From: a virus
IMG/VR virus record: IMGVR_UViG_3300045988_087221
Length of the DNA: 64,000 nucleotides
Strand: one strand, 5' to 3'
Shown piece by piece: positions 1 through 50,852 of the stretch. A model generated the notes under the pieces. It was not told where the DNA came from, searched no databases, and worked only from the letters and a program-made list of their open reading frames with translations. Every line of letters begins with the position of its first letter. Position 1 is the first letter of the stretch. A program made the position numbers and the translations under genes.

Positions 1-7
1 TTCAGAA

Positions 8-229
8 TTAGTCATTAAATAACTTTTCAATAGATTTCTTATAATCTGAATTCTTATGTACGAAATACAGAGCACATATAGTATTTATTAGAGGGCATAA
101 TACTATAAATAAAGTTAGCAAATTTATTTCTACTTTCTTAAGGTCCATGCGATAACTAATGTAGAAGCAACTTGCAAGATATATTACTATGCAAATAAGT
201 CCTATAATAAGTAACTCTCCAAAACTCAT
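8..229 (-). CDS. small membrane protein (hypothetical)
   Basis: 73-aa ORF with two hydrophobic segments. ATGA overlap with upstream gene. Confidence 0.5.
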   Translation of the reverse strand: MSFGELLIIGLICIVIYLASCFYISYRMDLKKVEINLLTLFIVLCPLINTICALYFVHKNSDYKKSIEKLFND

Positions 230-1377
230 AATTCTTTAATATCAGAATCTTCAGACTTTCCTAGATATATATCATTTATAATACAATTACTTGTACGTAA
301 TTGTTCTATAAAACGTATTATACCGATAATTCTTGGAGATTTATCTTGATAATCACATATAGTAGGAATGTACTTAGTCTTAAGGCAATCCCAATGAGTT
401 ATGACAATGTTAAACTTACAATGATATGTCTCACTATAATTATCTAAACAATGTCTTTCTACAGCTCTTTTAAACAAAGGATAGTCAAAAGGACCTGTTT
501 TAAACTCTCCTTGTGGTCCATCGTTAGTATTTGATGGTTCTTCTAGAGTAAAATACATTCCTAAGTCCATAGAATAAGGATTGTATCCATTTCCATGTCT
601 AGTTAAATATGGACGCATAACTAAGTATACTTCTGCATTTTCTAGACACTTCTCTGGGATTCCATTTAATCCTACTTTACTAGGAGTACAGTGAGGCATA
701 AATCCTCTTTCCATATCTAGAAGAAGACCTTGTGAACCCTCCCAAATAACAGTATCAACCTCATCAGGATAATAAGTTCCGATTATAAAAGTCTCAGGAT
801 GTTCTTTAATAAAGGTACAAGCCTCTTTAAAAAGATCATCTAGTTTAGTGTCCCGTTCTAGATTATGATAATCCCTTACAGTCTGTAAAGCTACATCTGC
901 ATATTCATCTGTATAAGGACACATACGAGCACTATAAGTTACATTATCTTTGTTTCTTTTAAAACAAGCATGTATACCTTTACCACAAGTTCCATTATAC
1001 TTCACTCGTCCATCCATAGAGTCAGCTAATACATCATAAGGTGTAATAACTCTACAGTTAGGATTTATATATAACTTAGGAACTTCAATACCCTCACTAA
1101 CTAAGACTTTATATTCATTATAAATACATATTGGGTCAATGAATACTTCCTTATATAAGCAAGTTGGTACTCCTAGCAAAACACCGCTTCCCCAAGAAGA
1201 ACATACGTGTGATTTACCTTTATAAACCACACGATGACCGGCTTGTGGACCTCCACTAAATCTGATGACAACAGGTTTGTAACTATTCATACATAGCCAT
1301 TGTACTACATTACCCTTACCCTCATCACCAAATAGAGATCCAAGTACTATTTGATTACGAATTTGTTTGCTGTCCAT
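226..1377 (-). CDS. adenylosuccinate synthetase (PurA)-like enzyme
   Basis: Motifs in PurA order: GDEGKGN P-loop, GGPQAGH, CGKGI, EGSQGLLLD..PS, TRHGNG. Start placed at MDSKQ; the track ORF extends to 1410. Confidence 0.75.
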   Translation of the reverse strand: MDSKQIRNQIVLGSLFGDEGKGNVVQWLCMNSYKPVVIRFSGGPQAGHRVVYKGKSHVCSSWGSGVLLGVPTCLYKEVFIDPICIYNEYKVLVSEGIEVPKLYINPNCRVITPYDVLADSMDGRVKYNGTCGKGIHACFKRNKDNVTYSARMCPYTDEYADVALQTVRDYHNLERDTKLDDLFKEACTFIKEHPETFIIGTYYPDEVDTVIWEGSQGLLLDMERGFMPHCTPSKVGLNGIPEKCLENAEVYLVMRPYLTRHGNGYNPYSMDLGMYFTLEEPSNTNDGPQGEFKTGPFDYPLFKRAVERHCLDNYSETYHCKFNIVITHWDCLKTKYIPTICDYQDKSPRIIGIIRFIEQLRTSNCIINDIYLGKSEDSDIKEL

Positions 1378-2167
1378 AACTGTTAGAAACAATACGAGCA
1401 ATAGATTCACCTACATGCTCTTTATCTGAAATAATAAGATTGTCTCCTACATAAGGCTTCCAACTATCTGAAACCCTTTCTACACTATAATAACCATCAT
1501 GTTCTACATGAATGTGATAAATATCCCACTTCTCAGCGCACTCTCTGTAAATGAAAGAGGTAGCTAAATCTTCACTACACTCATCACCTATATAATGAGT
1601 TACTGCTTCTTTAGGAAGAGTTTTATGAATTGGCTCATCACTAATTGTGATTAAACAGCCTTTAATACCTCTTTTCTCCAGAGCATCGGTCTTAATATGA
1701 TTAGCAGCGAAGTACCAACACATATGAGGATCTTCTCCTCCATTGCCACCTCCTTTACCTTCAAGGTCAACTTTACGGAGCCATTTCTCCATAAGTTCAT
1801 CACTTGATTCAAACTGTCCTACTTGTAAAGGAGCCTCTTCATAACAGCCCTCTACATCGCCAAATGCCATAAAACAGATTTGAGGATTATCAATACCTGC
1901 CTTCATAATACTAGCTACACAATCTGGTAAAGTATTATCAATAAGATATTTAGGCACTTTACCCATAGAACCAGTCTCATCCAAAGCAATAATGATAGGG
2001 AATGATTCTGGGTGTTCTTCAGAATCACAAGACTCTCTGAAATTAATGTTAAGAGGATTCATTTCAGGGTCTAACTTTTTCTTGCTGAATGTCTTTTCAA
2101 TAGACTGAGATCTGTAACTATGACTTCTAGCTACAGCATCATTATACGAATAACTACCACATCCCAT
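1355..2167 (-). CDS. von Willebrand factor A (vWA) domain protein, TerY-like
   Basis: IIIALDETGSMG MIDAS-like DxTxS motif followed by an alpha/beta pattern. 270 aa. Confidence 0.6.
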   Translation of the reverse strand: MGCGSYSYNDAVARSHSYRSQSIEKTFSKKKLDPEMNPLNINFRESCDSEEHPESFPIIIALDETGSMGKVPKYLIDNTLPDCVASIMKAGIDNPQICFMAFGDVEGCYEEAPLQVGQFESSDELMEKWLRKVDLEGKGGGNGGEDPHMCWYFAANHIKTDALEKRGIKGCLITISDEPIHKTLPKEAVTHYIGDECSEDLATSFIYRECAEKWDIYHIHVEHDGYYSVERVSDSWKPYVGDNLIISDKEHVGESIARIVSNSYGQQTNS

Positions 2168-3228
2168 TACGCTTCCTCCTTTGCTTGTGATTTAATATTA
2201 CTAGCTAATGCACTAACTAAAGCATTTACATTATCTGTAAGTGCATCTACCTTAGCATTAATTTTATCTAATTCCGATGGTTCTGAAGTTTCAGTAGCAG
2301 GTTTGCTTGCTGCACCAAACATATTACCAAACATATTACCACCTCCCATAAGCTGACTCATCATCATCATAGTCATAAAATCAGAACTATTATTATCAGC
2401 GAGAGCCATAAGCATCATAGGATTGAATCCCTTACCTGCATTATTAAATAGTCCACCACCATTCATAGCAGACATCATAAGCAGATTCTTAACATCAAAT
2501 TTATTTCCACTCATATAAGCAAGAGCAAGTGGATTAAATCCATTAGAAGAATCAAAGTTAAATGGATTGACAATAACTCTAAATGTTGCAGAACCCATCA
2601 ACTCATCTTCAATAGCAATCTTATTGTTAATATTGCCATTAAAGTTCATAATCTTGATAGAACCATCTTCTGCTTTAGTCTTAACTACACCATAAGACCT
2701 GCCTGATTTTACAATATCTCCGATTACAATTTGATCAGAGTTCTTGCTAATATTGTAAATACAAGGCATAGGGAAAGTCATCTTATACTTCTTGAGTTTA
2801 CCTGCCGGAGAAACGCCTACGTATGCACCGTCACTATTCTTAAAACAAAGAACACCATCAGTGATACTGATTCTAGCACTCTCCTCAGCCTGTGGCATAA
2901 ACTCATTATACATATCTTTAGTTAAATCTCCAAAGACATTATCAACATTCATTTTTCCAAATTGTTCCATACTTGAAATATTTTTACTTATAGTATTAAT
3001 TTGTTTACCATTAATCTCAGAAATTGTTACCGTCTCATAACTTTCTTGTTCTCTAGAACTTGCATAAGTCCAGACAACTTGAAACTTACTGTCATAACCT
3101 ACAAGTTGTACTAAATCACCTCTTTTAAGCCCAGGACACTCATTAGCTACTATATAAGGTACAGTAGTTTCTGAATTCATTCTAGTAGGACTTAATTTAG
3201 TATTTGTAAATATACCTCTAATTACCAT
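2167..3228 (-). CDS. hypothetical protein with Gly/Met/Asn-rich C-terminal region and coiled-coil tail
   Basis: 353-aa ORF with start/stop overlaps with its neighbours. Low-complexity GGGNMFGNMFG segment. Confidence 0.55.
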   Translation of the reverse strand: MVIRGIFTNTKLSPTRMNSETTVPYIVANECPGLKRGDLVQLVGYDSKFQVVWTYASSREQESYETVTISEINGKQINTISKNISSMEQFGKMNVDNVFGDLTKDMYNEFMPQAEESARISITDGVLCFKNSDGAYVGVSPAGKLKKYKMTFPMPCIYNISKNSDQIVIGDIVKSGRSYGVVKTKAEDGSIKIMNFNGNINNKIAIEDELMGSATFRVIVNPFNFDSSNGFNPLALAYMSGNKFDVKNLLMMSAMNGGGLFNNAGKGFNPMMLMALADNNSSDFMTMMMMSQLMGGGNMFGNMFGAASKPATETSEPSELDKINAKVDALTDNVNALVSALASNIKSQAKEEA

Positions 3229-3230
3229 AA

Positions 3231-3458
3231 TTATAAACTATTAAGTATGCTTTTATATCTATCTAAATATTTAGAACCTAATGCAGACATTATTTTATAA
3301 AATCCTGACCTAAATCCATCATCAGAACTAACTAATTGTTTTATGCTCTTTATATAATAATCAGGTATATCAGATCTACATTCATGTTGCATTAAGTTCC
3401 TAGCTAGTGCCATTTTATTTAATATTTCACCAGCTGCCTTAGCTTTATCTTCAGTCAA
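3231..3458 (-). CDS. hypothetical protein
   Basis: 75-aa ORF in a packed same-strand array. Confidence 0.45.
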   Translation of the reverse strand: MTEDKAKAAGEILNKMALARNLMQHECRSDIPDYYIKSIKQLVSSDDGFRSGFYKIMSALGSKYLDRYKSILNSL

Positions 3459-3668
3459 GTTTAAATATAACTAAATATACTAATAAAAAGACCAAAGCTA
3501 CTCCTAGAATATCTATAAACATTCAAATAGCTCTAATAGATTTAAATGGATAACGTTTCTGATCATAGCTACTAATGAAGTTTTCTTTTACTTTAGCTTC
3601 ATTAATACCTGTAAGTCTAATGGTTTGTTCTTTGTTTTTTAAAGAATCAAAATAAGTTACTTCAAATT

Positions 3669-4076
3669 TCATATAAAAGATTCTCTATTATTAAATTTAT
3701 TTTGAGCATCAAGTACTCCTTCTTTATCTGTAATATCTACAATAAGTCCTATTTGTCGTAACCAAACATCAAATGGACCACTGTACCCTAGGTCACCAAC
3801 CCAACCTCCTTTACAAAATACTATTTTCTTCCAAACAAAAATAGCACATAATATCCCATCAACTTCACATAAATGTTTGCCTTCTGGAATATCTAGGAAT
3901 GTTGGAGCTAAACCTACTCCCTCTCGATAATATTTAGATATTCGAGTATGAAATACATCATCCTGCATAACTACTGCATCTGTCTCATAATTAGTAGACA
4001 ATTTACCATGCAAATAAAAATCAGGCTGATAAATCCAATTCTCGTTTCGACTACTTAATGGCTTAAATTTAATCAT
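3669..4076 (-). CDS. hypothetical protein
   Basis: 135-aa ORF with ATGA-type coupling to flanking small ORFs. Confidence 0.55.
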   Translation of the reverse strand: MIKFKPLSSRNENWIYQPDFYLHGKLSTNYETDAVVMQDDVFHTRISKYYREGVGLAPTFLDIPEGKHLCEVDGILCAIFVWKKIVFCKGGWVGDLGYSGPFDVWLRQIGLIVDITDKEGVLDAQNKFNNRESFI

Positions 4077-4228
4077 TTATGTTTCTTTTTCCATCGAAAC
4101 CATAAACCTAATACAATACCAATTATAAACCAAACTAGTATTGTAATAATAAAGGTTCCAATATTAAGTACAATCATAATCTAATATTTATAGAGAGGGC
4201 TAGCTATTAACCAGTCCTCTCTCGTTAA

Positions 4229-6688
4229 TTACTTGAATAACTTTTTAGCCCAATACAGGAGTTCTCTACAAACTGGTACAATTGCAGTAAGACCTACAAT
4301 CTCCAACCATGTTTCAATACTTAATGGCTCTGTTCTGAACACATCGCCACCAAATTGAACTATCAAAATTTGACCAATAAATATAACCAAACATATTCCA
4401 ATAAATGCAGGATTACTTAACAAACCATTAAAGATACTTCTGTCTTGTCCAAATACTCTTGCATTAAACAAGTTCCAGAATTGTAACATAACAAAAATAG
4501 TGAAGAACTCTGTAAGGCTATATGTATTACTAATCAGCAAATATAATAATATGCCGAAATACAAAATACCTACACCAAAGATTTCATACCACATTCTCTT
4601 TGTGATAATAAATGCCTTAGGATCACGTGGCTGTTCAGACATTACTGCTTCATTAGCTGGTTCTGTAGCCAATGCTAAAGCAGCAAAAGTATCCATAATT
4701 AAGTTAACCCATAGCATTTGGATAACAGTGAATGGTAAGTCTACCCCAATAAATGGACCTACACAAGCAATACCAATAGCTACAACATTTACAGTAAGCT
4801 GGAAAAGAATAAAGTGCTGAATATTCTTATACAAGCTTCTTCCCCACTTAACTCCTAAGATAACAGAAGGGAATGAATTATCAAGAAGAATAACATCAGC
4901 TGCATTCTTAGCAATATCAGTACCATTATTCATAGCTACACCTACTTCAGCTTGGTTAAGAGCAGCTGAATCATTAGTTCCATCACCAGTTACAGCTACT
5001 ACTTCTCCCATTCTCTGGAATCTCTTAACAAGTGTCTGCTTGTCTTCAGGTTTAGTTCTGGCAAATACATCTACTTTACGTAAATTAGTATCTGTCTGAG
5101 CTTCGACTTCCTTACCAAGCATTGTGTTAGGAGTCTGAGAGATATTAGCTTGAGCAGCGATAGAAGCAGCTGTTTCAGGATTATCACCTGTCACAATCTT
5201 AACTTTAATTCCTGCGTTTCTAGCAGCCTGAATTGCATCAGGTACATTACTTCTTACTGGGTCTTCGATAGCTACGTAGCCATCCCATATGAAGTCTGAG
5301 AGGGTATTTATATCAGAACCAATCTTGTGTGCAAAAGCAATACATCTTCTGCCTTTAGATTGTTGTTCTGCAAAATTAGGTATGTTCTCATTAGAGCAGA
5401 AATTCATTACTATTTCTGGAGCTCCCTTAATATAAGTAACTGCTCCATCACTAGTAATCATATATTTATTCTTAGAATTAAATTCTACTCTACCTGTTAT
5501 ATGAGTTTTATTTCTTTTATCGGTGATGTCAACTGACTTTTGTACATATTGCAGACAAGCACCCTCTGTAGGATTTCCTACTACTTCTCCTGCAGGACTA
5601 AGATTAGCAGTAGAATTAAGTACAATATTATTTATGACAGCATTTCTATCTGTAAAGTCCTGGAATACTACTTTCATTTTATTCTCTGTAAGAGTTCCTG
5701 TCTTATCAGTAAGAATAAGAGTTGTAGCACCGAGAGTTTCACAAGCATGCATCTTTCTAATAAGGTTATTAGCTTTAGCCATTCTCTTCATAGAATAAGC
5801 AAGAGCAAGAGTTACCGCCATAGGTAAACCTTCTGGTACTGCTACTACAATAAGAGCTACTGCAATCATTAAGAATTGTAAGCAATCATTTACAATATCA
5901 ATAGTATCTTTGCCTACATATCCTTGCTCTATAAATATATAACGTATAGCAAGAGACACAATAAGGATACCTGCAGCTGTGAATGCTATCTTATTAATTA
6001 AGCTAGCTAATCCATTAAGCTGTTTATTAAGAGGTGTTTCTACATCAGTAATAGAAGATGCTTCTCTAGCAGTCTTACCTACTTCTGTTTCATCTCCTAC
6101 TGCAAATACTTCACCTACACAAGTACCCTCAGCTACAATAGTGCTTTTATAAATTCTATTTGTAGGATAGGTAGCAGTCTCTGATTCAAAATTAGTTTTA
6201 GTTACAGGATTTGTTTCTCCAGTTAAAGAAGCTTCACTTACCTTCAAATTGCTATATTCTCTAACAATAATATCGGCAGGAACTTCTTCACCAGCTTCAA
6301 GTATTACAATATCCCCTACAACTAAGTCTTTACGAGCTACTTGAATTACTCCATTATCTCGTCTTACCTTAACTAGAGTATCATCACTACTAGTTAAAAG
6401 AAGGTCAAACTTTTTAGCTGCTGACCAGGTATTCCAAAAACCAATACCTACAGCTAAAGCAATGGCTACAATAATACCAATAGGCTCTGTAAATTCACCC
6501 TTTACAAATCCTAAGGCAATAGATACTGCAGCTGCAATAAGTAATATTACAATAAGTGGGTCTTTAAATCCATCAAGTAACATTACATACCAAGCATCTC
6601 TCTTCGGAGGTGTCAATACATTAATGCCATGTCTAGCACGTGAATCTTCTACTTCTGTTAAGCTAAGACCGTAATTTATATCTGTCAT
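4229..6688 (-). CDS. P-type (P2) Ca2+-transporting ATPase
   Basis: DKTGTLT phosphorylation site, TGE, VPEGLP (TM4), TGDGTNDSAAL hinge, NLIMDTFAALALATEP (TM6), cation-ATPase N-terminal motif. 819 aa. Confidence 0.9.
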   Translation of the reverse strand: MTDINYGLSLTEVEDSRARHGINVLTPPKRDAWYVMLLDGFKDPLIVILLIAAAVSIALGFVKGEFTEPIGIIVAIALAVGIGFWNTWSAAKKFDLLLTSSDDTLVKVRRDNGVIQVARKDLVVGDIVILEAGEEVPADIIVREYSNLKVSEASLTGETNPVTKTNFESETATYPTNRIYKSTIVAEGTCVGEVFAVGDETEVGKTAREASSITDVETPLNKQLNGLASLINKIAFTAAGILIVSLAIRYIFIEQGYVGKDTIDIVNDCLQFLMIAVALIVVAVPEGLPMAVTLALAYSMKRMAKANNLIRKMHACETLGATTLILTDKTGTLTENKMKVVFQDFTDRNAVINNIVLNSTANLSPAGEVVGNPTEGACLQYVQKSVDITDKRNKTHITGRVEFNSKNKYMITSDGAVTYIKGAPEIVMNFCSNENIPNFAEQQSKGRRCIAFAHKIGSDINTLSDFIWDGYVAIEDPVRSNVPDAIQAARNAGIKVKIVTGDNPETAASIAAQANISQTPNTMLGKEVEAQTDTNLRKVDVFARTKPEDKQTLVKRFQRMGEVVAVTGDGTNDSAALNQAEVGVAMNNGTDIAKNAADVILLDNSFPSVILGVKWGRSLYKNIQHFILFQLTVNVVAIGIACVGPFIGVDLPFTVIQMLWVNLIMDTFAALALATEPANEAVMSEQPRDPKAFIITKRMWYEIFGVGILYFGILLYLLISNTYSLTEFFTIFVMLQFWNLFNARVFGQDRSIFNGLLSNPAFIGICLVIFIGQILIVQFGGDVFRTEPLSIETWLEIVGLTAIVPVCRELLYWAKKLFK

Positions 6689-6709
6689 TTTTTCTGTTAT
6701 TATAATTAA

Positions 6710-7336
6710 TTAAAGAAATGAAATTGTTGGACGCTTCATAGCATCAATTGAAGTCCAACCTCCGAACTCACCAACTGCCTTAAAGCGCCATTCACCATCC
6801 TTTTTATAGGCAACACCAAGGATAACTGCCTGCTTATCAGAAATCTTAGTACCTTCCTTACCGTCTTCAAGATTAAACTTAGCTAAGACATTTACAGGAG
6901 TATTAGTGTTTCTCTGTACTCTATCACCTGTATAAATACGAAGACCCATATAAGGAATCTCACCAAATGTCTGGTGTGTAAAGTTATTGAGAGTAAATGC
7001 AATATACTCAACACGTGGGTCAAGCTCATTTAAGCGTACCTCAATAGTCTCATTATCAAGACCATCATTACCATTTGTATCACCCGAACGATCATCACCA
7101 CTATGACGAATACCTGGAGCACTTAAATTGTAATAAGCTACTTCGCCAATACAATTCTTATTAGCATCATACAGAAGAACAGTAGAATCCAAATCTACCT
7201 TCTCGATAGAACCGCCAATGCCAAATAAACCCTTACGTCTGATAGCTCCCCAGTTTGAACCAAAGAATAATTTACTCAAACCATTGTTAGACTCTTTAGA
7301 CAGATTGATTCTGCCACCTTTACTTAAATTAATCAT
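6710..7336 (-). CDS. TerD-domain protein
   Basis: N-terminal INLSKGGRINLSK and Ca-binding GDDRSGDTNGNDGLDNETI motif typical of TerD/TerZ. Confidence 0.85.
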   Translation of the reverse strand: MINLSKGGRINLSKESNNGLSKLFFGSNWGAIRRKGLFGIGGSIEKVDLDSTVLLYDANKNCIGEVAYYNLSAPGIRHSGDDRSGDTNGNDGLDNETIEVRLNELDPRVEYIAFTLNNFTHQTFGEIPYMGLRIYTGDRVQRNTNTPVNVLAKFNLEDGKEGTKISDKQAVILGVAYKKDGEWRFKAVGEFGGWTSIDAMKRPTISFL

Positions 7337-7371
7337 AAAGCTTTATTAAATAATTGTGAATTACTAATTAA

Positions 7372-7405
7372 CTAAAAATGGGAGTACCTAATTAAAGATA
7401 CTCCC
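7372..7405 (-). terminator. hairpin plus U-tract terminator after the upstream TerD gene
   Basis: GGGAGTA/TACTCCC stem (7380-7405) followed on the minus strand by ATTTTT. Confidence 0.5.
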
Positions 7406-7447
7406 TTATAGAATCAAGAATTAAAACCGAATTAATTTATCAATTAA

Positions 7448-8050
7448 TTAAATAGCTGGGGCATCTGGCAAGATGAGTCCATAGTTACGAAGAATATCAC
7501 GATAGATAACATTCTGATAACTACCCTTGTCTTCTCCAAGAGCCTTGAACTTCCAATCACCATTGTGGCGATAAAGTTGGCAGAATACAACACAGCGAGA
7601 CATACTTGCATCCTCAGTAAGATCAAACTTAGCCAAAGGAGTAGTGTTACCTTTAGCATACAAGTTGCAATAAGCATTGTTAACCATACCAAAGTTCTGC
7701 TGACGATTCTTAGCATCGTGAATATTAACTAAGATGATAATTTTCTGGACATCTGCAGGAACCTTAGTAGTGTCTACTACAATTGTCTCATCATCTCCAG
7801 CACCAGCACCTGTACGGTTATCACCTGAATGCTTAATAGCATCTTTCCAATTTGGGTTATTGTAGAAAATGAAACCATTGTCAGGATCTACTGCTTTATC
7901 CTGAGCATTCAAAGGAATAGTAGCTACATCCAAGTCAAATTCTACACCTGCCTGGGATGCTACATCCCAACCCAAACCAATTGAAAACTCTGTTACACCA
8001 TTTGCTTCTTTAGCGAGGTTGATGTTACCTCCTTTACTTAATTGAATCAT
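7448..8050 (-). CDS. TerD-domain protein (paralog)
   Basis: IQLSKGGNINLAK and GDNRTGAGAGDDETIVVD TerD signature. Confidence 0.85.
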   Translation of the reverse strand: MIQLSKGGNINLAKEANGVTEFSIGLGWDVASQAGVEFDLDVATIPLNAQDKAVDPDNGFIFYNNPNWKDAIKHSGDNRTGAGAGDDETIVVDTTKVPADVQKIIILVNIHDAKNRQQNFGMVNNAYCNLYAKGNTTPLAKFDLTEDASMSRCVVFCQLYRHNGDWKFKALGEDKGSYQNVIYRDILRNYGLILPDAPAI

Positions 8051-8064
8051 AATTGTGAATTGAA

Positions 8065-8256
8065 TTAATATTTACCGCAAAATTTACGGCTAATTATAGT
8101 CATAACTTTATCATAAGTTAACTTTTTAGCTTCCTTCTCAGAATAACCTTCTATAATATAAGAATCTACTATTTTCTCAATTGCAGCATTCATTTCAGAG
8201 AATAAGTATTTTTGTTCTTTAGTTAACTTATCATCATATAAATAAGATTTATTCAT
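8065..8256 (-). CDS. hypothetical protein
   Basis: 63-aa ORF that overlaps the upstream gene end. Confidence 0.45.
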   Translation of the reverse strand: MNKSYLYDDKLTKEQKYLFSEMNAAIEKIVDSYIIEGYSEKEAKKLTYDKVMTIISRKFCGKY

Positions 8257-8515
8257 CTACTTGTAAATCAGCCTGAGTACTTTCTATATAATCTTTTACA
8301 TCTAAGTCTGTAATAAGATTAACTAAGTCTCCAACAGTCTTTAGATTCTGAACTTTATCATCTGTGATAGGATAACCAAACTCCTGTTCACACTCAGTAA
8401 TAATCTCTACTAAATCAAGACTGTCTGCATACAAATCATCGAAAGTATCTTCACTCTTGGCATCTACACCTAGTTCTTCATTAATTATATTAATGACCCT
8501 TGTTTCTATACTCAT
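8249..8515 (-). CDS. acyl carrier protein-like
   Basis: 88 aa, acidic. LYADSLDLVEIITECEQEFG matches the ACP DSLD phosphopantetheine-serine helix II motif. Confidence 0.7.
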   Translation of the reverse strand: MSIETRVINIINEELGVDAKSEDTFDDLYADSLDLVEIITECEQEFGYPITDDKVQNLKTVGDLVNLITDLDVKDYIESTQADLQVDE

Positions 8516-8907
8516 GCTTCAGGTCTTACTGGATAAATAGCGTCCTCGAAACCATCAATATCATCAGCATCAAGACCACTAATAGGCTTATCACTGAATA
8601 GCTGATTATGAATTGCTACGTCAATACTAATGGAGCGAGCAAGAATAACTAATTCTTCAGCTGCAGCATTAACATCTGTAGTGAATTTAACTGGATCAAT
8701 ACTTCTAATCTTAGAAGCAATATCCATAGTAGTGTCATCTCCGAGATCTAACAGAGAATCAAACTTCATTCTCTTGTTACGGAAATTCACCACTTTGCTC
8801 TGAATGTTCTGTTCAGAGACACTTGCCATGTTCTTTAAGGCACTACTAACTCTAGAATCTTTTAAATCCTTAGTTGAAGCACCTACTACTTCTTTAATAC
8901 TTTTCAT
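8512..8907 (-). CDS. hypothetical protein
   Basis: 131-aa ORF, overlap-coupled. Confidence 0.5.
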   Translation of the reverse strand: MKSIKEVVGASTKDLKDSRVSSALKNMASVSEQNIQSKVVNFRNKRMKFDSLLDLGDDTTMDIASKIRSIDPVKFTTDVNAAAEELVILARSISIDVAIHNQLFSDKPISGLDADDIDGFEDAIYPVRPEA

Positions 8908-8913
8908 TCTTAA

Positions 8914-9489
8914 TTAAATTAATAAACGTTTATTTAAAATTACTGGTGTACCCTTTGATTCCTTAGTTGGACCTGGTGCAGGGAGTGCTTGAGACTCTTC
9001 ACCCTTAGGCTTATAATGTTCTTGTATATATGTACTGAAGGGCTTTGAATCAAGTAACGTTGGAATATGCCAATCAAAAAGCTCATAATGGATAGCTACT
9101 TCATTATCTACCTTATAAGTATCTGTACGAGCTAGAACCTTTTTAAGATCCATTTTATTTTCCTTAGGCTCATCAAATATGTAAGCTATTGAATTTTCAT
9201 CTGGCACTAATCCTATGACAAATAGAAAATTATATCCTTTGTTACATAGAGATGGAACGCCAAATAAACCTACACAATAAGCATTTAGATATGACATGTT
9301 CTTTTCACACGCTTTATAAAAAGGCCCCTTGTTATAATCAGGTTTCTCCTTCATTATATATACTGTCTTACTATCTTCAGGACGTATTAAATAGTATTTA
9401 GCATCAGGAATAGAGTCTTTGGAATTATTTCCAAAAAAACCCACTTCTGTCGAGGGAATACAACCCTTTACTACCTCATCTTCATTCAT
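8914..9489 (-). CDS. hypothetical protein
   Basis: 191-aa ORF. Confidence 0.5.
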   Translation of the reverse strand: MNEDEVVKGCIPSTEVGFFGNNSKDSIPDAKYYLIRPEDSKTVYIMKEKPDYNKGPFYKACEKNMSYLNAYCVGLFGVPSLCNKGYNFLFVIGLVPDENSIAYIFDEPKENKMDLKKVLARTDTYKVDNEVAIHYELFDWHIPTLLDSKPFSTYIQEHYKPKGEESQALPAPGPTKESKGTPVILNKRLLI

Positions 9490-10292
9490 TATATATCTTC
9501 CTTTTTAGTGTTAAACACATGTTCAGTATGGGTAGAAGTAAATCCTGGATTATATTGTAATTTCTGAATACCAAGTATCTTATTATACATTACATTAGGA
9601 AAAGAATCCAACATCGAGTTCTGTTGCCTTACTGTTTCCATGCATGCTTCTTCTAACTTGTAATACTCTTCTCGTTGTCCATTTACAAATCCAGATAAGT
9701 CACCATAAAATTTAGTAAATTCAGAATAAGGAATATTTTGATTCTCTTGGAGCCATTTCCAAGTAACTTGCGCTCCATCATGTCTCCCCTCCATAATCAT
9801 ATTAGTGACTTCCAAGAAAGTATTCTTATTTAATTCACAAATTTCATACTTCTGAAGATACACTTTCCATAATTTATCGAAGAACATTTTACGGGCATAC
9901 TGTTGCTTGTCTAACTGATTAGTATATTCAATATTCTTATTATACAATTTTATTATAGCGCCAATAGGACTTATAAACCAACACAATATAATAATTCCGG
10001 GAATTATAATCCACTTTTTCTTAATATTTATATTTGAATAGTCTTCTGTTTTATCATTAAATGCACATATAGCAGTAATGGCAGTGACAAAAGTCGCAAT
10101 AAATAAAACCCATTGAATGACACAATGACAAAAACCCATCCTTATAGCATTAGGGGAACCCTCTAAAGTTAGAAATCCCTTGTCACTAATCATATCATCA
10201 AATATCTGAGTATTCCATAAAAGTAAGAACAGAATGGCACATATAATAGATGCACCTAAAAATAATAAACCATGCTTAATATTATTTTTCAT
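9489..10292 (-). CDS. multi-pass membrane protein (hypothetical)
   Basis: 267 aa with about 4 hydrophobic helices in the N-terminal half. Confidence 0.55.
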   Translation of the reverse strand: MKNNIKHGLLFLGASIICAILFLLLWNTQIFDDMISDKGFLTLEGSPNAIRMGFCHCVIQWVLFIATFVTAITAICAFNDKTEDYSNINIKKKWIIIPGIIILCWFISPIGAIIKLYNKNIEYTNQLDKQQYARKMFFDKLWKVYLQKYEICELNKNTFLEVTNMIMEGRHDGAQVTWKWLQENQNIPYSEFTKFYGDLSGFVNGQREEYYKLEEACMETVRQQNSMLDSFPNVMYNKILGIQKLQYNPGFTSTHTEHVFNTKKEDI

Positions 10293-10623
10293 ATTATTTA
10301 ATTAAAAATTTATTAAATTTATCATGAAGAGGCTGAAATTCTTTTCTAAGTTCTACTAGTTCTCCCATTTCTTCTATAGAACTAACATCACTTAGTTTAA
10401 TGTTATTAATTATATTCAAAGCATCTCTAAGACGACATTGAATACCTTTTATTGGAGTGTCATTTACCATAATTAAGATTCTATAAAGACTATTATAATT
10501 AAAAAGATAAGTGCAATAAGTGCTGTCGTTTTACAAAACTCAATGAGTTCCATATTCTGTACAGCAAGCACACTTTCTATTATACCAAATAGCAATAAAC
10601 TACCGCTAATTATTATAAGTTTT

Positions 10624-10935
10624 TTAATCATCACCTAATAAACCTAATTCCTCCAATGTAGAAGTGTCATCAATATCTACATGTAATGGATAATCCTTAT
10701 CCTTAATATCTCTATTAAACTCCATACGAGTTGCCCCATAATAAGCATCTAAATAAGCTTTTCGTAAAAGTCCTAAAAATAGACTAGTGGATAAAGTAAT
10801 AGTACCATTAACTTCTTCTAATCCCTCTAAATATTTACGACACCATTCATATGATGCGACTTTAGATAAGGGCTGTGAAGTACACATAGCAAAACCATCA
10901 AAATCAGGACATTTTGGACAATATAATTTAGCCAT
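10624..10935 (-). CDS. hypothetical protein
   Basis: 103-aa ORF. Confidence 0.5.
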   Translation of the reverse strand: MAKLYCPKCPDFDGFAMCTSQPLSKVASYEWCRKYLEGLEEVNGTITLSTSLFLGLLRKAYLDAYYGATRMEFNRDIKDKDYPLHVDIDDTSTLEELGLLGDD

Positions 10936-10942
10936 AATTAAT

Positions 10943-11326
10943 CTACTTAAGAATTTTAATTTTTACATGTCTTATACTAATTCTCTTAGAGTTTTTGGGG
11001 TGTATTAATATATCAATACGATGTTTATGTCTTTTGTTCATAACATCCCTAACTTCATATATTCCAAATCCTTCTATAAACACTTTTTTAGGTTTATTCT
11101 TTGGAAATAAATAAAGTAAATCACGAGATATAGCACACCATTTAATACTGCCCCTTTTTAAATGACGCAAGTTAATTTTAGAACCATCAGCTGTAACTAA
11201 TGGTTTACTGTCACACTGACTCTTTACTGGTTGATAACAAGTAAGAGTTACATGAGTAGTTGTTTGGCAGAAAGCCTTACTCATGAAGCTTAATAATAAT
11301 AAAAATATTAATATCTGTTTCCTCAT
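10943..11326 (-). CDS. secreted 3D-domain (MltA/RlpA-like) cell-wall protein
   Basis: Signal peptide MRKQILIFLLLLSF. TADGSKI..AISRDLL..IEGFGIYEVRDVMNKRHKHRIDIL resembles the 3D domain. Ends in TAG. Confidence 0.55.
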   Translation of the reverse strand: MRKQILIFLLLLSFMSKAFCQTTTHVTLTCYQPVKSQCDSKPLVTADGSKINLRHLKRGSIKWCAISRDLLYLFPKNKPKKVFIEGFGIYEVRDVMNKRHKHRIDILIHPKNSKRISIRHVKIKILK

Positions 11327-12475
11327 TTAATATATCTGATTAAGCTTACCTGAAGCACTTGAAGTGTATCCAGATTTAATTATATAAATATTAAAATTAC
11401 ATAAACTGGTTACAACGTAACGCTTTTGAGGGTCTATGTAGAATATAGTACGATCGTCAAACTCTTCTCCTATTTTGAGATACTTTATCTCCTTATTAGA
11501 TATAATAGTATCTGTGCGCATATAAGTGCCCTCCAGGACTTTCTTAGCTTCCAATTCTCTCTCAGAATATTCTTTAATAGGCTTTCCTGCAGCTTGGCAC
11601 ACTATTTCTCGACTTTCGACTATCTTATCAAAGAGTTGTCCATCAATATGAGGACTATTCCTTAATAATCCATCTCTTAATTCTAGAGATTCTACAAAAT
11701 AGGTAAAATTAGAGAACTCAAGATTAAAGTCTCTACGGATTGCCTCAATTTTGTCTTTACCATGAATATTAACTTCCTGAGCAAGAGCTTTTACTAGATC
11801 AACAGTAATTATCTGCATCTGTCTAATTAAGTCTAGTACTGGCTCTATTGCATCTTTGTCAATTAAAATATCATTAAGTAATTCAAGTGTAGTTTCTTCA
11901 GGTAGATTACCAAAAGAACGTACATATCTAATACGTGATGGGCGACCTAACAAATTATTATTAATTTCCAACTCATTAGTGGTAAGTAGAAATATTTTAC
12001 GATATTGTGAATTGTGAACACCGTCCATAAAAGAGAGAACTGATGAAGATTCCCTAAATTCTTTTTCGTATTCATCAAAGAAGAAGATACAGTCAAAGTT
12101 AATTTGAGTAGCTAAGAATTTAAGCATATCATTTACTTCTTTACAGGATTTAACAATAATAACTGGAAGTCCGATACGATTACAAAGCTCTTCTGCAGTA
12201 ACTGTTTTACCTGTTCCCTTGATACCATTAAATAATACTCCTAAATTACCTGTAGTATTATTGTAAGTTTTTACAAAATGATCAATAAACTCACTATTAA
12301 TACCATACAATTTGTAATTAAATACAAAAGAATCTCCAAGTCTATTTAAATAATAACCTGTCATTGATTCTTTAACTTCATAAATTCCTTTAGGCAATCC
12401 TTCAGGATGTGCTTTTGTTGTGGCACTACCCTTCACAAAAGTATTACCATCTTGAATCCAAATGTTTTGTTCCAT
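11327..12475 (-). CDS. AAA+ ATPase
   Basis: Walker A GIKGTGKT, Walker B IFFFDEYE, sensor-1-like LLTTNE. Confidence 0.75.
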   Translation of the reverse strand: MEQNIWIQDGNTFVKGSATTKAHPEGLPKGIYEVKESMTGYYLNRLGDSFVFNYKLYGINSEFIDHFVKTYNNTTGNLGVLFNGIKGTGKTVTAEELCNRIGLPVIIVKSCKEVNDMLKFLATQINFDCIFFFDEYEKEFRESSSVLSFMDGVHNSQYRKIFLLTTNELEINNNLLGRPSRIRYVRSFGNLPEETTLELLNDILIDKDAIEPVLDLIRQMQIITVDLVKALAQEVNIHGKDKIEAIRRDFNLEFSNFTYFVESLELRDGLLRNSPHIDGQLFDKIVESREIVCQAAGKPIKEYSERELEAKKVLEGTYMRTDTIISNKEIKYLKIGEEFDDRTIFYIDPQKRYVVTSLCNFNIYIIKSGYTSSASGKLNQIY

Positions 12476-12493
12476 AATTAAATTATTTTATCT

Positions 12494-12886
12494 TTATAAT
12501 CTCATATCAGAGTTTAACTCTAAACCAAATAGAAAATGTTGAAGTTGATGGACATATCTAATCTTTTTGAAGCGATGCTTAGTCTTACCACGACAAAGTT
12601 CCCATACAGAAGGATAATCTTTATTTGGTTTAATGAAGTAATATACACCATCAAATCTTGCTCTCCACCATGTATATCTCTTAGACTTTAACCTTTTCCA
12701 TTTGTTTTTGTCTAATATTTCTGGGGTAAGGGGGATTGGAACTATATCAGTACACTCAATATCTACATCATTATAATTTGCATCTAGAGCTTCATAGTAA
12801 TATTTACCACTGCTCATAATTGTATAATTATTGCAAAACTTTGGTATATAAACTAAATCTCCAGGAATATATTGAATTCGTTCCAT
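12494..12886 (-). CDS. hypothetical protein, paralog of 21902-22273
   Basis: Shares ..PGD.V....PLTPEILDKN.W......VHQLQHFLFGLELN with the other copy. Confidence 0.55.
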   Translation of the reverse strand: MERIQYIPGDLVYIPKFCNNYTIMSSGKYYYEALDANYNDVDIECTDIVPIPLTPEILDKNKWKRLKSKRYTWWRARFDGVYYFIKPNKDYPSVWELCRGKTKHRFKKIRYVHQLQHFLFGLELNSDMRL

Positions 12887-14011: not shown

Positions 14012-14097
14012 AATAATTTAAATACAAAAATCCCTGAACTATATAGGTAGCCCAGGGATTAAAATAACGTTAAATAATAAAAACAGTTCTATGAACC

Positions 14098-14433
14098 GGT
14101 GGAGCATTGGAGAGTCGAACTCCAGTCACTCCGATTTGCATCAAAACATTCTTACAGCATAGGTTTTAAAGACTATCCTTGTCTGCTAGGGTTGACAAGA
14201 TTAACATATTGTCAACTTCCACCACTCTGTTCCTAAAGTATACAGAGAACTTACAAAAGAAATGGAAAATAGTGCACCTTTCTGTTCCTAAGCAAGTGCT
14301 GCTCGGCTTCTCAGGCTGCGATAGCGTAAGAAGCGGAAGTGTTATTTACTTCGCCAATTAATTTTTTACTTGTCTATCCAAGTTGTCTTGCTGTGTTCCT
14401 TATCTCCTCGAAGTTCAAAACCACGAATGCCCC
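14098..14433 (-). ncRNA. ssrA: tmRNA (complete, phage-encoded)
   Basis: The 5' GGGGCAT pairs with the 3' ATGCTCC-A-CC, giving G3:U70. T-arm GGAGTTCGACTCTCC. Internal tag frame 14311-14355 reads GGC GAA GTA AAT AAC ACT TCC GCT TCT TAC GCT ATC GCA GCC TGA = GEVNNTSASYAIAA*. Confidence 0.85.
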
Positions 14434-41572: not shown

Positions 41573-42288
41573 TTAATTGTTCATAGATAGCTAATAACGT
41601 ACAACTGTTACTAACTATTTCGTCCAAGTCTCATCAGTATGAATTTTATAGTCTCCTTGGCTGACTAAACAATTTCTCTTACTCCTTGTTCAAGGGAAGC
41701 CTCTCTTTAAGCACTGAGGTTATTGCTTTAAAAATGTGTAGTTCTTCAACACTTACTATCTCCTACACTGATTTTCATTCAGCTTTCTTTTTGTATATTT
41801 GTAAAATATACTCAAATACTCTCAATGTGTTACGACTGCTTATCTACTTCTCATACAACTTAGCTTTATAATAATGTTAATTAATTATATATTAAGAAGC
41901 AACTCCACTCTAGATAAGTAAGTGAGCTGTGTTTTTTTACTTTAAACTTATTTTTAGTTTAACCGTCTAACTAAATAAAGGACTTAATGTTGTTTTAATT
42001 TTGTCATTTTTGTTTTTTCAAATAATACAAAGTAACAGCTCCCCATACACCAAATTGGCAAAATGGCAAATAAAGTGAAAGTACACTAAATGTGCCCTCC
42101 CACACATCTGCCGTTGCGCGCTTACCTCTCTAGTGTATCAGAGAGCTATGTTACTGTGTTTTATTTTTAATTTTGTTGTTAAATTTAGCTGTCTTTCCAG
42201 CTTGCCAGAATAAAAAATAGAAACATTGTTAACTAACTCTGTTGTTTTGTTGTTTATTGTTTTGTTGTGATTTTGTTGTTTACGACAG

Positions 42289-43958: not shown

Positions 43959-44030
43959 TCTCTTATGGTGTAATGGTCAGCACAGAAGACTCTAAATCTT
44001 TTAGTCAGGGTTCGAATCCTTGTGAGAGAA
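43959..44030 (+). tRNA. amber suppressor tRNA (anticodon CTA), Gln-like
   Basis: Canonical cloverleaf: acceptor TCTCTTA/TGAGAGA (U1:A72), D GTGT-AATGGTCA-GCAC, anticodon arm GAAGA-CTCTAAA-TCTTT, T CAGGG-TTCGAAT-CCTTG. The D arm is nearly identical to that of tRNA-Gln(TTG) at 35041-35111. Confidence 0.9.
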
Positions 44031-44055
44031 CAATTTAATTATAAAAATATGTATT

Positions 44056-44376
44056 ATGATTATTGCAATTTATAAACTAAATGACAAGCTGTTAAAAACA
44101 ACTAATTTAGAAAAGAAACTTAAAAAGTTGAAAAAGTCTAAATTAGATAGTAAAATACAAATTCTTTTCCAAGAGGATTATGAGGGGGATTTAAAAGAGG
44201 CTGAGAATTATTTAGATTACATAATTAAAAAGAACTATGTAATAGATGACAATGTAGATGATACTAGTAATGTGGTTTTCCATCATTATATTAATAGACA
44301 AACTGGTTATACACACACTAGTATATATGATAATGATATAAGAATAATAAATGAAGGTTATGAGCAAATTGACTAA
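44056..44376 (+). CDS. hypothetical protein
   Basis: 106-aa ORF in the standard code. Confidence 0.55.
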   Translation: MIIAIYKLNDKLLKTTNLEKKLKKLKKSKLDSKIQILFQEDYEGDLKEAENYLDYIIKKNYVIDDNVDDTSNVVFHHYINRQTGYTHTSIYDNDIRIINEGYEQID

Positions 44377-44536
44377 AAATTATAATATTTACGAAGACTA
44401 TTTAAATAGAAATGCTACGCTGTCTTTAAATAAAGCGGAGGAAACAGTAGATAAAGTATTAACAGAACCGTTTAAAAATAAGCAATGGTTTCTTAATTAT
44501 CTAGATGAATTAAATAAACAATCAGTAAGGTACTAA
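44351..44536 (+). CDS. hypothetical protein
   Basis: 61-aa ORF. Confidence 0.45.
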   Translation: MKVMSKLTKNYNIYEDYLNRNATLSLNKAEETVDKVLTEPFKNKQWFLNYLDELNKQSVRY

Positions 44537-44550
44537 TGTAATTCTAAATA

Positions 44551-44862
44551 ATGATTGATTATAAAGCAACTATTAAAAATATACACTCAGCATTGTCTGA
44601 TTTAAATATAGATGAATTATTAATTATACTTGATTGTATTAAAGAGATTCCTAGTTATAATAATTCTGTACACATTAATAGTGGAGGTTATACATATCCT
44701 AGTATGGATAATGTTCTGTTAAATTCAAAATTGAAATCTCCATCTGTTTCAGATACATTATATTCTTTGCAATTAGAAACAGACCATACTACATGTAATT
44801 CAGTAAATTGTACTAATGTAGCTAAGAAACGTGAAGATAATAAGATTAATGTTTCAATTTAA
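44551..44862 (+). CDS. hypothetical protein
   Basis: 103-aa ORF. Confidence 0.5.
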   Translation: MIDYKATIKNIHSALSDLNIDELLIILDCIKEIPSYNNSVHINSGGYTYPSMDNVLLNSKLKSPSVSDTLYSLQLETDHTTCNSVNCTNVAKKREDNKINVSI

Positions 44863-44884
44863 GTTTATAAATTATAAAATATTT

Positions 44885-44920
44885 AAGGCGACCTAGCAAT
44901 TAAGCTAAGCCGCCTTTTAT
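44885..44920. terminator. bidirectional hairpin terminator between convergent units
   Basis: AAGGCG/CGCCTT outer stem with inner TAGC/GCTA stem, followed by TTTTATT. Confidence 0.55.
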
Positions 44921-45151
44921 TGTATCTATTAATTACTATAATTAATTATTTTCTCCATATACTAGTTATACTATCTATACCTAGTAGTCCCATACAACAA
45001 TATAAAACTGTATCTATCATATTAGGAGCTTGTATCTAACTAATAGAACAGTATATTAGAATAATTAAACTAACTACCCATCCTAATATTCCACATACTC
45101 TTTTACTACTTACTCCGGTATGCGCTGTTATTAATTTAATTAAAAACTATT

Positions 45152-47086: not shown

Positions 47087-47199
47087 ATCTTTTCACACAG
47101 TTTTAATAAGGAATCTCGAGTAATCTCAGAATATGATATTTCTACGGGGTGTTCTATTCTCCATAGTAATCCTTTTCCAGTTTTAATTACTTGTTTCAT
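47083..47199 (-). CDS. small hypothetical protein (38 aa)
   Basis: ATGA overlap with the downstream 644-aa gene. No TAG. Confidence 0.35.
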   Translation of the reverse strand: MKQVIKTGKGLLWRIEHPVEISYSEITRDSLLKLCEKI

Positions 47200-47296
47200 A
47201 TCTTCTTAAATATTTATTCCATAACTACTTATCTCTCTCATCTACAAAATCTAAAAATTCTTGTAGTTCGTCTAGTTGTATATTTATATCTCTCAT
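47183..47296 (-). CDS. small hypothetical protein (37 aa if TAG is read through, 23 aa otherwise)
   Basis: ATGA overlap with the upstream 379-aa gene. One in-frame TAG. Confidence 0.3.
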
Positions 47297-48432: not shown

Positions 48433-48555
48433 TTTAATTAAATTTAAGAGTTTATATTACTAATTAATTTGTTATACACCTAATTATATATTATTATTGA
48501 AAAGTTAAAAATTAGTTTAGATAAATATAAAATAAATGTAAAATGTTAATGTTAT

Positions 48556-49470: not shown

Positions 49471-49561
49471 TATGATACTATGTATAGCATTATTACTAAT
49501 AGCTTATTTAATTTATAGCACTATAATTGAATTAACTAAGAATTAATATACAAATTAATAT

Positions 49562-49783
49562 ATGGAAGAATATATAACTAAACGTACTAAAATATGTAGA
49601 GCTTGTCCTATTTGTGACCAAGAAAATGAGATTTGTAATGCACATTTGTATTTAAATCCTGAAAATAATGATGTAAGTACAACACCTAAGAAGGGATATT
49701 TAAAGGGATGCGGATGCCACCTAAAATGGAAGATTAATAATAAAAACTCACATTGTCCTTGTAATAAATGGGAAGCAGAATGA
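49562..49783 (+). CDS. small Cys-rich (zinc-binding?) protein
   Basis: 73 aa with CRACPICD...CNAH...CGCH...CPC. Confidence 0.5.
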   Translation: MEEYITKRTKICRACPICDQENEICNAHLYLNPENNDVSTTPKKGYLKGCGCHLKWKINNKNSHCPCNKWEAE

Positions 49784-50025: not shown

Positions 50026-50048
50026 TTATTGCCATAAATTAAATGTAA

Positions 50049-50654: not shown

Positions 50655-50664
50655 TAAAGTTTAC

Positions 50665-50850: not shown

Positions 50851-50852
50851 TT

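Follow-up and report, generated by a model that had tools for sequence, protein, structure and literature searches.

A conserved cassette of TerD proteins and a PMCA-type ATPase with a putative role in calcium handling in gut phages

The 64,000-nucleotide stretch of the IMG/VR virus record IMGVR_UViG_3300045988_087221 analysed here (referred to as the window) contains ten closely packed open reading frames (ORFs), all on the minus strand, between positions 226 and 8515. Among these, two genes for TerD-domain proteins (TerD1 and TerD2) precede a gene for a predicted Ca2+-translocating P-type ATPase. This linkage of TerD genes and pump is real and recurrent, and it is found mainly in phages and mobile elements. 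An initial annotation, made from the sequence alone, had combined six genes into a single auxiliary module, i.e. the pump, both TerD genes and the genes for a protein with a von Willebrand factor A (vWA) domain, a homologue of adenylosuccinate synthetase (PurA) and an acyl carrier protein (ACP). All six ORFs were recovered at the positions assigned to them, on the minus strand, but their grouping into one module did not hold. Instead, the region probably comprises two unrelated conserved gene units, here termed A and B, together with variable genes. Unit A encodes TerD1, TerD2, the PMCA-type ATPase and a small membrane protein. On balance, we favour its interpretation as a Ca2+-handling cassette that would both clear and buffer Ca2+ in the cytoplasm of infected Bacteroidales cells. 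The vWA and PurA-like genes form the separate unit B, and the ACP gene is confined to close relatives.

Linkage of TerD genes and the ATPase in viral genomes

The order TerD1–TerD2–ATPase is retained in 50 of 51 related gut-phage contigs, at ATPase identities of 60–100%. These IMG/VR contigs measure approximately 95–225 kb, mostly 140–195 kb, and the majority stem from one large dataset (3300045988). The ATPase and both TerD genes are under purifying selection, with ratios of nonsynonymous to synonymous substitution rates (dN/dS) of 0.03–0.19 overall, namely 0.03–0.18 for the ATPase, 0.08–0.19 for TerD1 and 0.06–0.11 for TerD2. The supposed association of a Ca2+ pump with TerD proteins was thus borne out, both by a gene order that is kept down to 60% ATPase identity and by its reappearance in other phage lineages. 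As to the wider synteny, conservation across relatives extends to TerD1–TerD2–ATPase and not to the remaining genes, since the vWA–PurA-like pair changes its position and the ACP gene is variable.

Outside this clade, nine of 19 further ATPase loci from the viral collection of IMG/VR (34–49% identity) carry TerD within 10 kb, in varying arrangements; several of these 19 may be bacterial. The 305-kb phage L144 encodes TerD–TerD–TerB with the pump 2.6 kb onward, L145 and L154 share the arrangement TerD–TerD–x–pump, and in L152 the pump is followed by PspA, TerD and TerD. A tenth case is provided by MT840059 (L051), an unannotated fragment of a gut phage, in which an ATPase with 34% identity is followed by two TerD genes. 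Between positions 2144 and 12667 of contig L148, three TerD genes, three TerY genes (one with a TerY_C domain), a PP2C gene, a Ser/Thr kinase gene and genes for a small membrane protein and a Ca-ATPase all point in one direction. This 28.9-kb contig, which possibly derives from Bacteroidales or from a mobile element, represents a full TerY-P cluster linked to a Ca2+ pump. Another entry among the ATPase matches, MT838269 (L053), is listed as 'Bacteriophage sp.'; it was set aside as probably bacterial, given that its ATPase is 85% identical to one from Prevotella.

The bacterial counterparts present a different picture. In the 80 Bacteroidales loci that harbour the closest ATPases (43–48% identity), TerD, TerY, PP2C or kinase genes within 10 kb were found in none, and TerD was likewise absent from the vicinity of all 55 phage loci that were chosen by their vWA gene and served as a control. 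It is this contrast between 0/80 bacterial and 0/55 control loci on the one hand and 9/19 other ATPase loci of the viral collection on the other that identifies the linkage as real and recurrent. The chromosomal loci with the closest ATPase homologues were not the source of the linkage: capture en bloc of a bacterial TerD–ATPase operon from these Bacteroidales loci was considered and rejected, because none of the 80 has Ter genes within the 10 kb inspected.

The P-type ATPase

The ATPase gene (4229–6688, minus strand) encodes a PMCA-type (P2B) protein of 819 amino acids with the Pfam domains E1-E2_ATPase, Cation_ATPase_N, Cation_ATPase_C and Hydrolase. With 627.8 bits, the protein surpasses the curated cut-off of the NCBIfam PMCA-type equivalog TIGR01517 (507.05), and it remains below the cut-offs of the PMR1-type, the SERCA-type and all other P-type models. 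Plant ACA8, PMCA1/2, SPCA1 and Listeria LMCA1 are the best matches in the PDB. Approximately 50 homologues conserve the motifs TGE(T/S), PEGLP, DKTGT, KGAPE, DPxR, TGDN and GDGTND as well as NLIMD in transmembrane segment (TM) 6. In the window, they take the forms LTDKTGTLT, SLTGET (TGES in most relatives), IKGAPE, EDPVR, VTGDN and TGDGTNDSAAL. The assignment as a P2-type Ca2+-ATPase of 819 residues with all catalytic motifs therefore stands.

Several features point to Ca2+ as the substrate. FQLTVNVVA of TM5, LWVNLIMDTFAALALATE of TM6 and the stretch VPEGLPMAV are identical or nearly so in PMCA2 and ACA8. Moreover, the protein matches the pattern of Ca2+ site II, which comprises the PEGL Glu of TM4 together with Asn/Asp of TM6, while site I is absent and TM5 is PMCA-like; the ligand roles of these TM4 and TM6 residues are presumed here from established structural knowledge of SERCA and PMCA. 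The pump thus shares with the P2B enzymes of the PMCA and ACA type and with LMCA1 the equivalog score, the single-site signature in TM5 and TM6 and all P-type motifs. It differs from them in its length of just 819 residues, in its lack of an autoinhibitory domain and in an identity to the solved structures of well under 50%. It starts at Cation_ATPase_N and ends past TM10, and nothing in it corresponds to residues 1–147 of ACA8 or to the C-terminal tail of PMCA2. A calmodulin-binding autoinhibitory extension is a feature of eukaryotic PMCA and ACA pumps, and bacterial members likewise do without one. Judged from this architecture, the tail-less pump is probably either unregulated or regulated by a partner.

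As a peculiarity of two relatives (L014 and L015), the ATPase gene is split exactly between GDG and TND of the GDGTND motif by a group I intron (11701–12834), which carries a 242-aa ORF. The intron's match to Rfam RF00028 (36 bits, E = 3e-7) lies under the gathering score.

The TerD proteins and their small companions

TerD1 (7448–8050, minus strand; 200 aa) is a canonical TerD-domain protein, with a Pfam TerD E-value of 7.2e-59 and a score of 198.8 bits against a gathering score of 25.3 (PF02342). Its identity to two TerD proteins of solved structure, 3ibz and 2kxt, is approximately 50%. Its Ca-binding motif, GDNRTGAGAGDDE, corresponds to that of the Ca-binding TerD from Klebsiella (2kxt) and is kept across the clade. 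TerD2 (6710–7336, minus strand; 208 aa), which ends 21 bp before the start of the ATPase gene, is a divergent paralogue (E = 2.6e-23, 82.9 bits). Its Ca loop, GDDRSGDTNGNDGLDNE, contains an insertion of four residues and DNE in place of DDE, and the resulting variant GDD(R/L)xGDxxGxDGxDNE is retained in relatives of the clade. Hence, the initial annotation was right to name two TerD paralogues and to ascribe a complete Ca-binding motif to TerD1, while 'intact' was too strong a word for TerD2. As cited in PMC8123226, TerD from Klebsiella binds Ca2+ (Pan 2011) and a TerD-domain protein from Streptomyces influences Ca2+ homeostasis (Daigle 2015).

In most relatives, a TerB-like protein is added to the cassette. 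In 31 loci with 60–66% ATPase identity, the corresponding gene separates TerD2 from the pump; it is a short ORF for an acidic product in which the motif ADGxxxxEE recurs. Such ORFs occur in L017, L019–L050 and L135 (at about 9560–9940), and in L144 (6414–7340) one is found after the TerD pair. The copy of L036 clears the Pfam TerB threshold with 32.4 versus 24.4 bits. Among the ORFs of the window that were scanned with Pfam, none matched TerC, TerB or TelA.

The small membrane protein of unit A is encoded by a micro-ORF (4073–4177, minus strand) downstream of the pump, which specifies 34 residues with a single transmembrane helix, MIVLNIGTFIITILVWFIIGIVLGLWFRWKKKHK. It had escaped annotation and carries a polybasic tail. 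The micro-ORF is conserved in all close relatives with conservative substitutions only, and its stop overlaps the start of the following gene o135 (ATGA). A 36-aa equivalent adjoins the ATPase stop in L011 and L012, which belong to a clade with 78% ATPase identity, and in the 60–66% clade a membrane protein of 130 residues takes its place. Small membrane peptides regulate other P-type ATPases. By analogy, the micro-ORF product may be a candidate for a small partner or regulator of the pump.

Two stable hairpins flank TerD2 and the ATPase gene in the window. The first (7380–7405, minus strand) is located between TerD1 and TerD2 and resembles a terminator or attenuator, with a T-run behind the stem-loop; a terminator scan indicated a 10-bp stem, and folding gave −16.6 kcal/mol (z = −4.2). 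The second (4192–4222, minus strand) lies directly past the ATPase stop (−16.9 kcal/mol, z = −3.7).

The phage, its host and its coding strategy

The phage origin of the DNA is evident from the presence of a large terminase (TerL) and a portal gene, from TAG-recoded late genes and from a suppressor tRNA with the anticodon CUA. On the plus strand between approximately 44 and 64 kb, long ORFs appear only if TAG is treated as a sense codon. When it is read as Gln, large ORFs of this late block prove to encode the large terminase and the portal protein. The terminase, portal and structural genes (44000–64000, plus strand) contain 6–38 in-frame TAG codons each, and the tRNA-CUA gene (43959–44031, plus strand) sits at the switch point into the recoded block. 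The only TAG codon within positions 1–12,475 terminates o127; none lies inside a gene. The terminase shares 26–28% identity with those of Crassvirales. We describe the carrier as a gut phage of approximately 185 kb that recodes TAG in its late genes and is a distant relative of the crAss-like phages.

A megablast search of positions 1–9000 against the GenBank phages gave no matches, and the nearest entries in this collection come from human faecal samples. The closest cellular homologues of the ATPase (43–48% identity) all belong to gut or rumen bacteria, nearly all of them Bacteroidales, which suggests that the host is probably a member of this order, too.

Units A and B are both located in the standard-code block, alongside a gene for a Tad2-like anti-Thoeris protein and a tRNA array. 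Because this region does not depend on TAG recoding, codon usage and gene position suggest that unit A is expressed ahead of the recoded late genes.

Proposed function of unit A and alternative explanations

According to the model that we prefer, the cassette would probably be expressed ahead of the late genes and the pump would enter the inner membrane of the host. P2B pumps export one Ca2+ from the cytoplasm per ATP. The phage enzyme, which has no autoinhibitory tail, would do so with the same stoichiometry and release the ion into the periplasm. As soluble proteins, TerD and, in phages that have it, TerB would bind cytoplasmic Ca2+ and serve as buffers, as sensors coupled to the pump, or as both. 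The phage could benefit in that cytoplasmic Ca2+ would be held low throughout a long infection in the Ca-rich gut. Possibly, envelope-stress or abortive responses that are linked to Ca2+ would be blunted as well.

The architecture of such a cassette is reminiscent of the ter operon, with a P-type pump that would replace the membrane metal exporter TerC. TerC proteins are known as membrane metal exporters (PMC10550928). With the bacterial ter clusters (terZABCDE and TerD/TerY-P), the phage cassette shares multiple TerD paralogues (and TerB in relatives) beside an integral-membrane divalent-cation exporter as well as the Ca2+-binding TerD fold. It differs from them in that its membrane component is a P2B ATPase and that its carrier is a lytic-type phage rather than a plasmid or chromosome. 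PP2C and kinase homologues were found in none of the phage loci, nor is TerY part of the phage cassette.

Ca2+-ATPases and TerD proteins of gut phages have already been published, so that the initial remark that no such phage system had been described is out of date. According to two reports (bioRxiv 2025, PMC12363816; Sci Adv 2026, PMC12880540), Ca-translocating P-type ATPases are encoded by most Jug phages, by 81 other huge gut phages and by four phages of 159–197 kb, and the TerD genes of Jug phages are highly transcribed. The latter report also describes high transcription of the Jug-phage Ca-ATPase genes in gut samples, genomes of 360–402 kb and, as a partner of the pump, a co-transcribed upstream orphan protein of 77–91 residues, and it treats TerD apart from the pump as a stress-response gene (PMC12880540). 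The ATPases of Jug phages and of the window agree in that both are Ca2+ P-type ATPases of human-gut phages with predicted Bacteroidaceae hosts, closest cellular homologues in Bacteroidales, and conserved DKTGT and Ca-site residues. In the Jug-like loci L136–L143, which were included in our comparison, the ATPases are 48–49% identical to that of the window, and the described 77-aa upstream ORF is carried (present in L136 and L139); it is not found in the window. By contrast, the gene upstream of the pump is TerD2 (208 aa) in the window, or a TerB-like gene in relatives, and the phage of the window is crAss-related, recodes TAG and has a genome of approximately 185 kb, with related contigs of approximately 180–190 kb. 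A search of full texts, outside of which lay the Jug supplement and Anantharaman et al. 2012, yielded no description of a TerD–TerD–(TerB)–Ca-ATPase cassette or of a vWA–PurA-like pair. Within the literature covered, it is thus the linked cassette that is new. The range of phage Ca2+ pumps thereby grows beyond the Jug phages (360–402 kb) and takes in a widespread clade of phages of approximately 185 kb, in which the pump has candidate partners.

Several observations weigh against the Ca2+-handling model. In one contig of the 51 (L039), the ATPase occurs without TerD. In Jug-like contigs, TerD lies at varying distances from the pump and is not consistently adjacent, and the Jug pump is co-transcribed with a different small protein. 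The ATPases of L145 and L148 are approximately 69% identical to a Bacteroides ATPase, and L145, L148 and L154 may stem from bacteria or mobile elements; this weakens the phage-specificity of the linkage, not the linkage itself. The modified loop of TerD2 makes its metal binding uncertain, the TerB-like gene is missing from the window's own subclade, and the hairpin between TerD1 and TerD2 could place the two genes on separate transcripts. Finally, early timing rests solely on codon usage and gene position, and a scan for sigma-70 promoters, a model that does not represent Bacteroidales promoters, returned no more sites than expected by chance.

Among the alternatives, the most viable one, to which we would still assign a low probability, is that unit A functions as a conflict system. 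In that case, a Ca2+ influx signal for an abortive or envelope-stress response of the host would be quenched or, as the initial annotation had considered, superinfecting phages would be excluded, which would echo phage inhibition by plasmid-borne ter genes. Indeed, ter operons have been associated with the inhibition of phages and with resistance to colicins (PMC8123226) and TerY-P modules act as antiphage systems (PMC11090510). In addition, the same early region encodes the Tad2-like anti-Thoeris domain protein, and both L152 and Jug phages have PspA-like genes beside their TerD genes. Against this stands that the PADLOC defence models matched none of the module proteins and gave just weak IetA-like matches for an AAA protein at 11327–12475. 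We know of no Ca2+-triggered defence in Bacteroidales. In any case, this alternative concerns the benefit for the phage, and the biochemical mechanism of the Ca2+-handling model would fit it as well.

Still less probable is a different substrate, i.e. Mn2+ or another divalent cation, as in SPCA/PMR1-type pumps or TerC exporters, with TerD binding that metal. This idea gains some weight from the facts that the PMR1-type is the second-best family of the ATPase, that SPCA structures are among its top PDB matches, that the metal loop of TerD2 is modified and that TerC-family proteins export Mn2+ (PMC10550928, PMC12096827). However, the PMR1-type score of 442 bits is far under the cut-off of 798 and only the PMCA-type cut-off is passed, the residues of TM5 and TM6 match PMCA2 almost exactly, and the Ca-binding motif is kept in TerD1. 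It is very improbable, moreover, that TerD and pump are functionally uncoupled accessory genes gathered in a hypervariable early region: the region is indeed plastic among relatives (insertions, deletions, introns and gene shuffling), and large gut phages possess several TerD copies, so that some proximity by chance is expected, but neither gene order nor spacing has changed in 50 of 51 loci despite deep divergence (the gap in the window being 21 bp), the association recurs with ATPases of just 34–49% identity, and the control and bacterial ATPase loci are devoid of nearby TerD genes.

Returning to the Ca2+-handling model, a more specific and rather speculative version can be envisaged. Conceivably, TerD and TerB dock on the tail-less pump and gate it by cytoplasmic Ca2+, which would make the cassette, micropeptide included, a self-contained viral device that quenches Ca2+ signals and, in the crAss-related clade of approximately 185 kb, suppresses a stress or abortive response of the host that depends on Ca2+; separately, the vWA and PurA-like proteins may constitute a pan-phage enzyme system that applies phosphoryl activation of the PurA type to a substrate other than inosine monophosphate (IMP) plus aspartate. 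We regard this combination as doubtful. If true, TerD and TerB would obtain their first direct functional assignment: they would regulate a divalent-cation exporter of the membrane, the cellular counterpart of which would be TerC. For decades the function of these proteins has been unclear; links to tellurite resistance, to the inhibition of phages and to colicin resistance were made, but no mechanism came with them. A minimal, strongly conserved phage cassette in which TerD and TerB accompany a pump whose substrate class is known thus offers a compact and testable model, namely that both proteins cooperate with such an exporter of divalent cations in Ca2+ homeostasis.

Unit B: the vWA-fold protein and the PurA-like enzyme

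The first protein of unit B (1355–2167, minus strand) belongs to PHROG 2971 of unknown function and has no sequence match in Pfam (including VWA and TerY_C), NCBIfam, PADLOC or the PDB. Its AlphaFold model reaches a mean pLDDT (predicted local distance difference test) score of 90.8 and is matched by Foldseek, with a probability of 1.0, to the vWA domains of integrin beta-I, SpaC and NorD. Moreover, a DETGSMG motif, which resembles a metal ion-dependent adhesion site (MIDAS), is invariant across 20 homologues. Based on this confident model and the invariant motif, a vWA fold is assigned. The designation as a TerY-like vWA protein accordingly survived in its structural part and failed with respect to TerY: in addition to the missing VWA, TerY_C and PADLOC signals, there are no PP2C or kinase genes in the neighbourhood. 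The genuine TerY proteins of L148 reach 45–55 bits with Pfam VWA and, in one case, 169 bits with TerY_C. VWA is also the one family for which the profile searches, proposed at the outset for all components, came back empty; TerD, Cation_ATPase, Adenylsucc_synt and PP-binding were all matched.

The second protein (226–1410, minus strand; probable start at M12, position 1377) is a divergent member of the PurA superfamily, as had been surmised. Pfam Adenylsucc_synt is matched with an E-value of 8e-35 over profile positions 1–319 of 416 only, and the scores remain far under the cut-offs of the PurA models (104 versus 402 bits for NF002223; 93 versus 396 for TIGR00184) and of the PurZ model NF038379 (37.9 versus 300). 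With PurA and PurZ, the enzyme shares the fold and the core for phosphotransfer, that is, GDEGKG as the P-loop, AGH with the catalytic His and EGSQG with its Gln (the latter two residues being equivalents of H41 and Q224). In contrast to them, the aspartate-binding loop TTGRRRR (T300, T301, R303 and R305 in E. coli) is replaced by PQG-EFK, and the family has motifs of its own with Cys and His residues (GTCGKG, MPHCTPS and TRHGNG). Judged by these scores and residues, the protein is neither PurA nor PurZ. It probably catalyzes the NTP (nucleoside triphosphate)-dependent phosphoryl activation of a nucleotide-like carbonyl for attack by a different nucleophile. A role as PurZ in the formation of a Z-genome, prompted by the family-level label of PHROG 1211, was likewise discarded; the PurZ score is too low, no PurZ structure is among the PDB matches, and datZ, mazZ and dpoZ were not systematically searched for.

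A scan with an alignment of the vWA protein retrieved 55 distant phage loci (26–62% identity). In 49 of these, the PurA-like gene directly follows the vWA gene, and in none does TerD or the ATPase occur within 10 kb of it. For this reason, the vWA–PurA-like pair is considered an independent and widespread phage unit and not a TerY-type component of a Ter system. The pairing, found in nearly every instance, suggests a two-protein system and sets the enzyme apart from PurA and PurZ. The pair is carried by the loci L054, L172–L226 and L227–L229, which include a 375-kb gut phage (L054) and cultured phages of Mycobacterium (cluster C; gp253 and gp255, 'PurA', of ScottMcG), Vibrio (phiKT1024) and Rhizobium (RHph_TM30). 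It thereby spans phages of Actinobacteria, Proteobacteria and Bacteroidota.

These data also bear on the original view that all six genes constitute one Ter-type module, in which TerD and TerY-like proteins would act as sensors, the PurA-like enzyme and the ACP would produce a nucleoside-like metabolite and the pump would add Ca2+ control. That the six genes are packed within 8.3 kb on the same strand, and that the entire block is syntenic in close relatives (at least 78% ATPase identity), speaks for such a module. Yet, the pair is located downstream of the pump only in the window's subclade; in the 60–66% clade it lies 6–8 kb upstream of the TerD genes and thus on their other side, and the ACP gene is missing there. 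Together with the distant loci devoid of TerD and ATPase, and with a vWA protein that lacks the TerY signal so readily recognised in L148, this renders the single module highly unlikely. As the pair is separate, the link to the Ter-type pathway for a nucleoside-like metabolite is therefore removed.

The pair is often preceded by o353 (2167–3228, minus strand), the product of which combines beta-rich N-terminal domains with a G/M/N-rich region and a C-terminal helix. Homologues precede the pair in ten of the 55 distant loci and are syntenic also in L054. The AlphaFold model of o353 (pLDDT 65) gave no significant fold match in the PDB with Foldseek, the best hits being small SH3/KOW-like barrels (E = 0.036). 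In L002 and L015, an insertion of approximately 1.3 kb, which may be an intron or a mobile insertion, separates the vWA gene from a PurA-like ORF without its N-terminus (354 aa). The AAA ATPase at 11327–12475 (minus strand; PHROG 2376) has a homologue in L054 two genes upstream of the o353–vWA–PurA-like triad; in view of the pairing of AAA and vWA proteins, it may be a fourth member of unit B.

Variable genes and further elements of the window

The ACP gene (8249–8515, minus strand) is a variable accessory gene outside both units. As first annotated, it encodes an ACP of 88 residues, which matches PP-binding with an E-value of 3e-13 (PF00550, 50.2 bits, cut-off 20.8), features the phosphopantetheine-accepting DSL serine within YADSLDLVEI and remains under the cut-off of the NCBIfam ACP equivalogs (61.8 versus 71). 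It is restricted to close relatives of the window and, with dN/dS values of 0.16–0.67, evolves faster than the ATPase and TerD genes. No partner enzymes of the ACP were detected in the window by Pfam, including a further 45 ORFs, among which only YkuD_2, Tad2-like, LytTR and TraD_N were matched. Three small genes have no family matches: o63 (8065–8256, minus strand) between the ACP gene and TerD1, found in close relatives only; o135 (3669–4076, minus strand), a fast-evolving filler between units A and B with a dN/dS of approximately 0.75 versus L011 and L012; and o75 (3231–3458, minus strand), which is present in close relatives and L039.

The 45 ORFs (12480–44500, minus strand) comprise one each for the Tad2-like protein (Thoeris anti-defence 2, 1e-18), a YkuD_2 L,D-transpeptidase (2e-31) and a LytTR DNA-binding domain, in addition to the TraD_N match. 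Two RNA elements were found on the same strand. A tmRNA (14097–14433) was detected by both ARAGORN, with the tag peptide GEVNNTSASYAIAA, and Rfam RF00023 (51 bits, gathering score 47), and a RAGATH-1 hammerhead ribozyme is located at 41581–41667 (80.8 bits versus a gathering score of 56.3).

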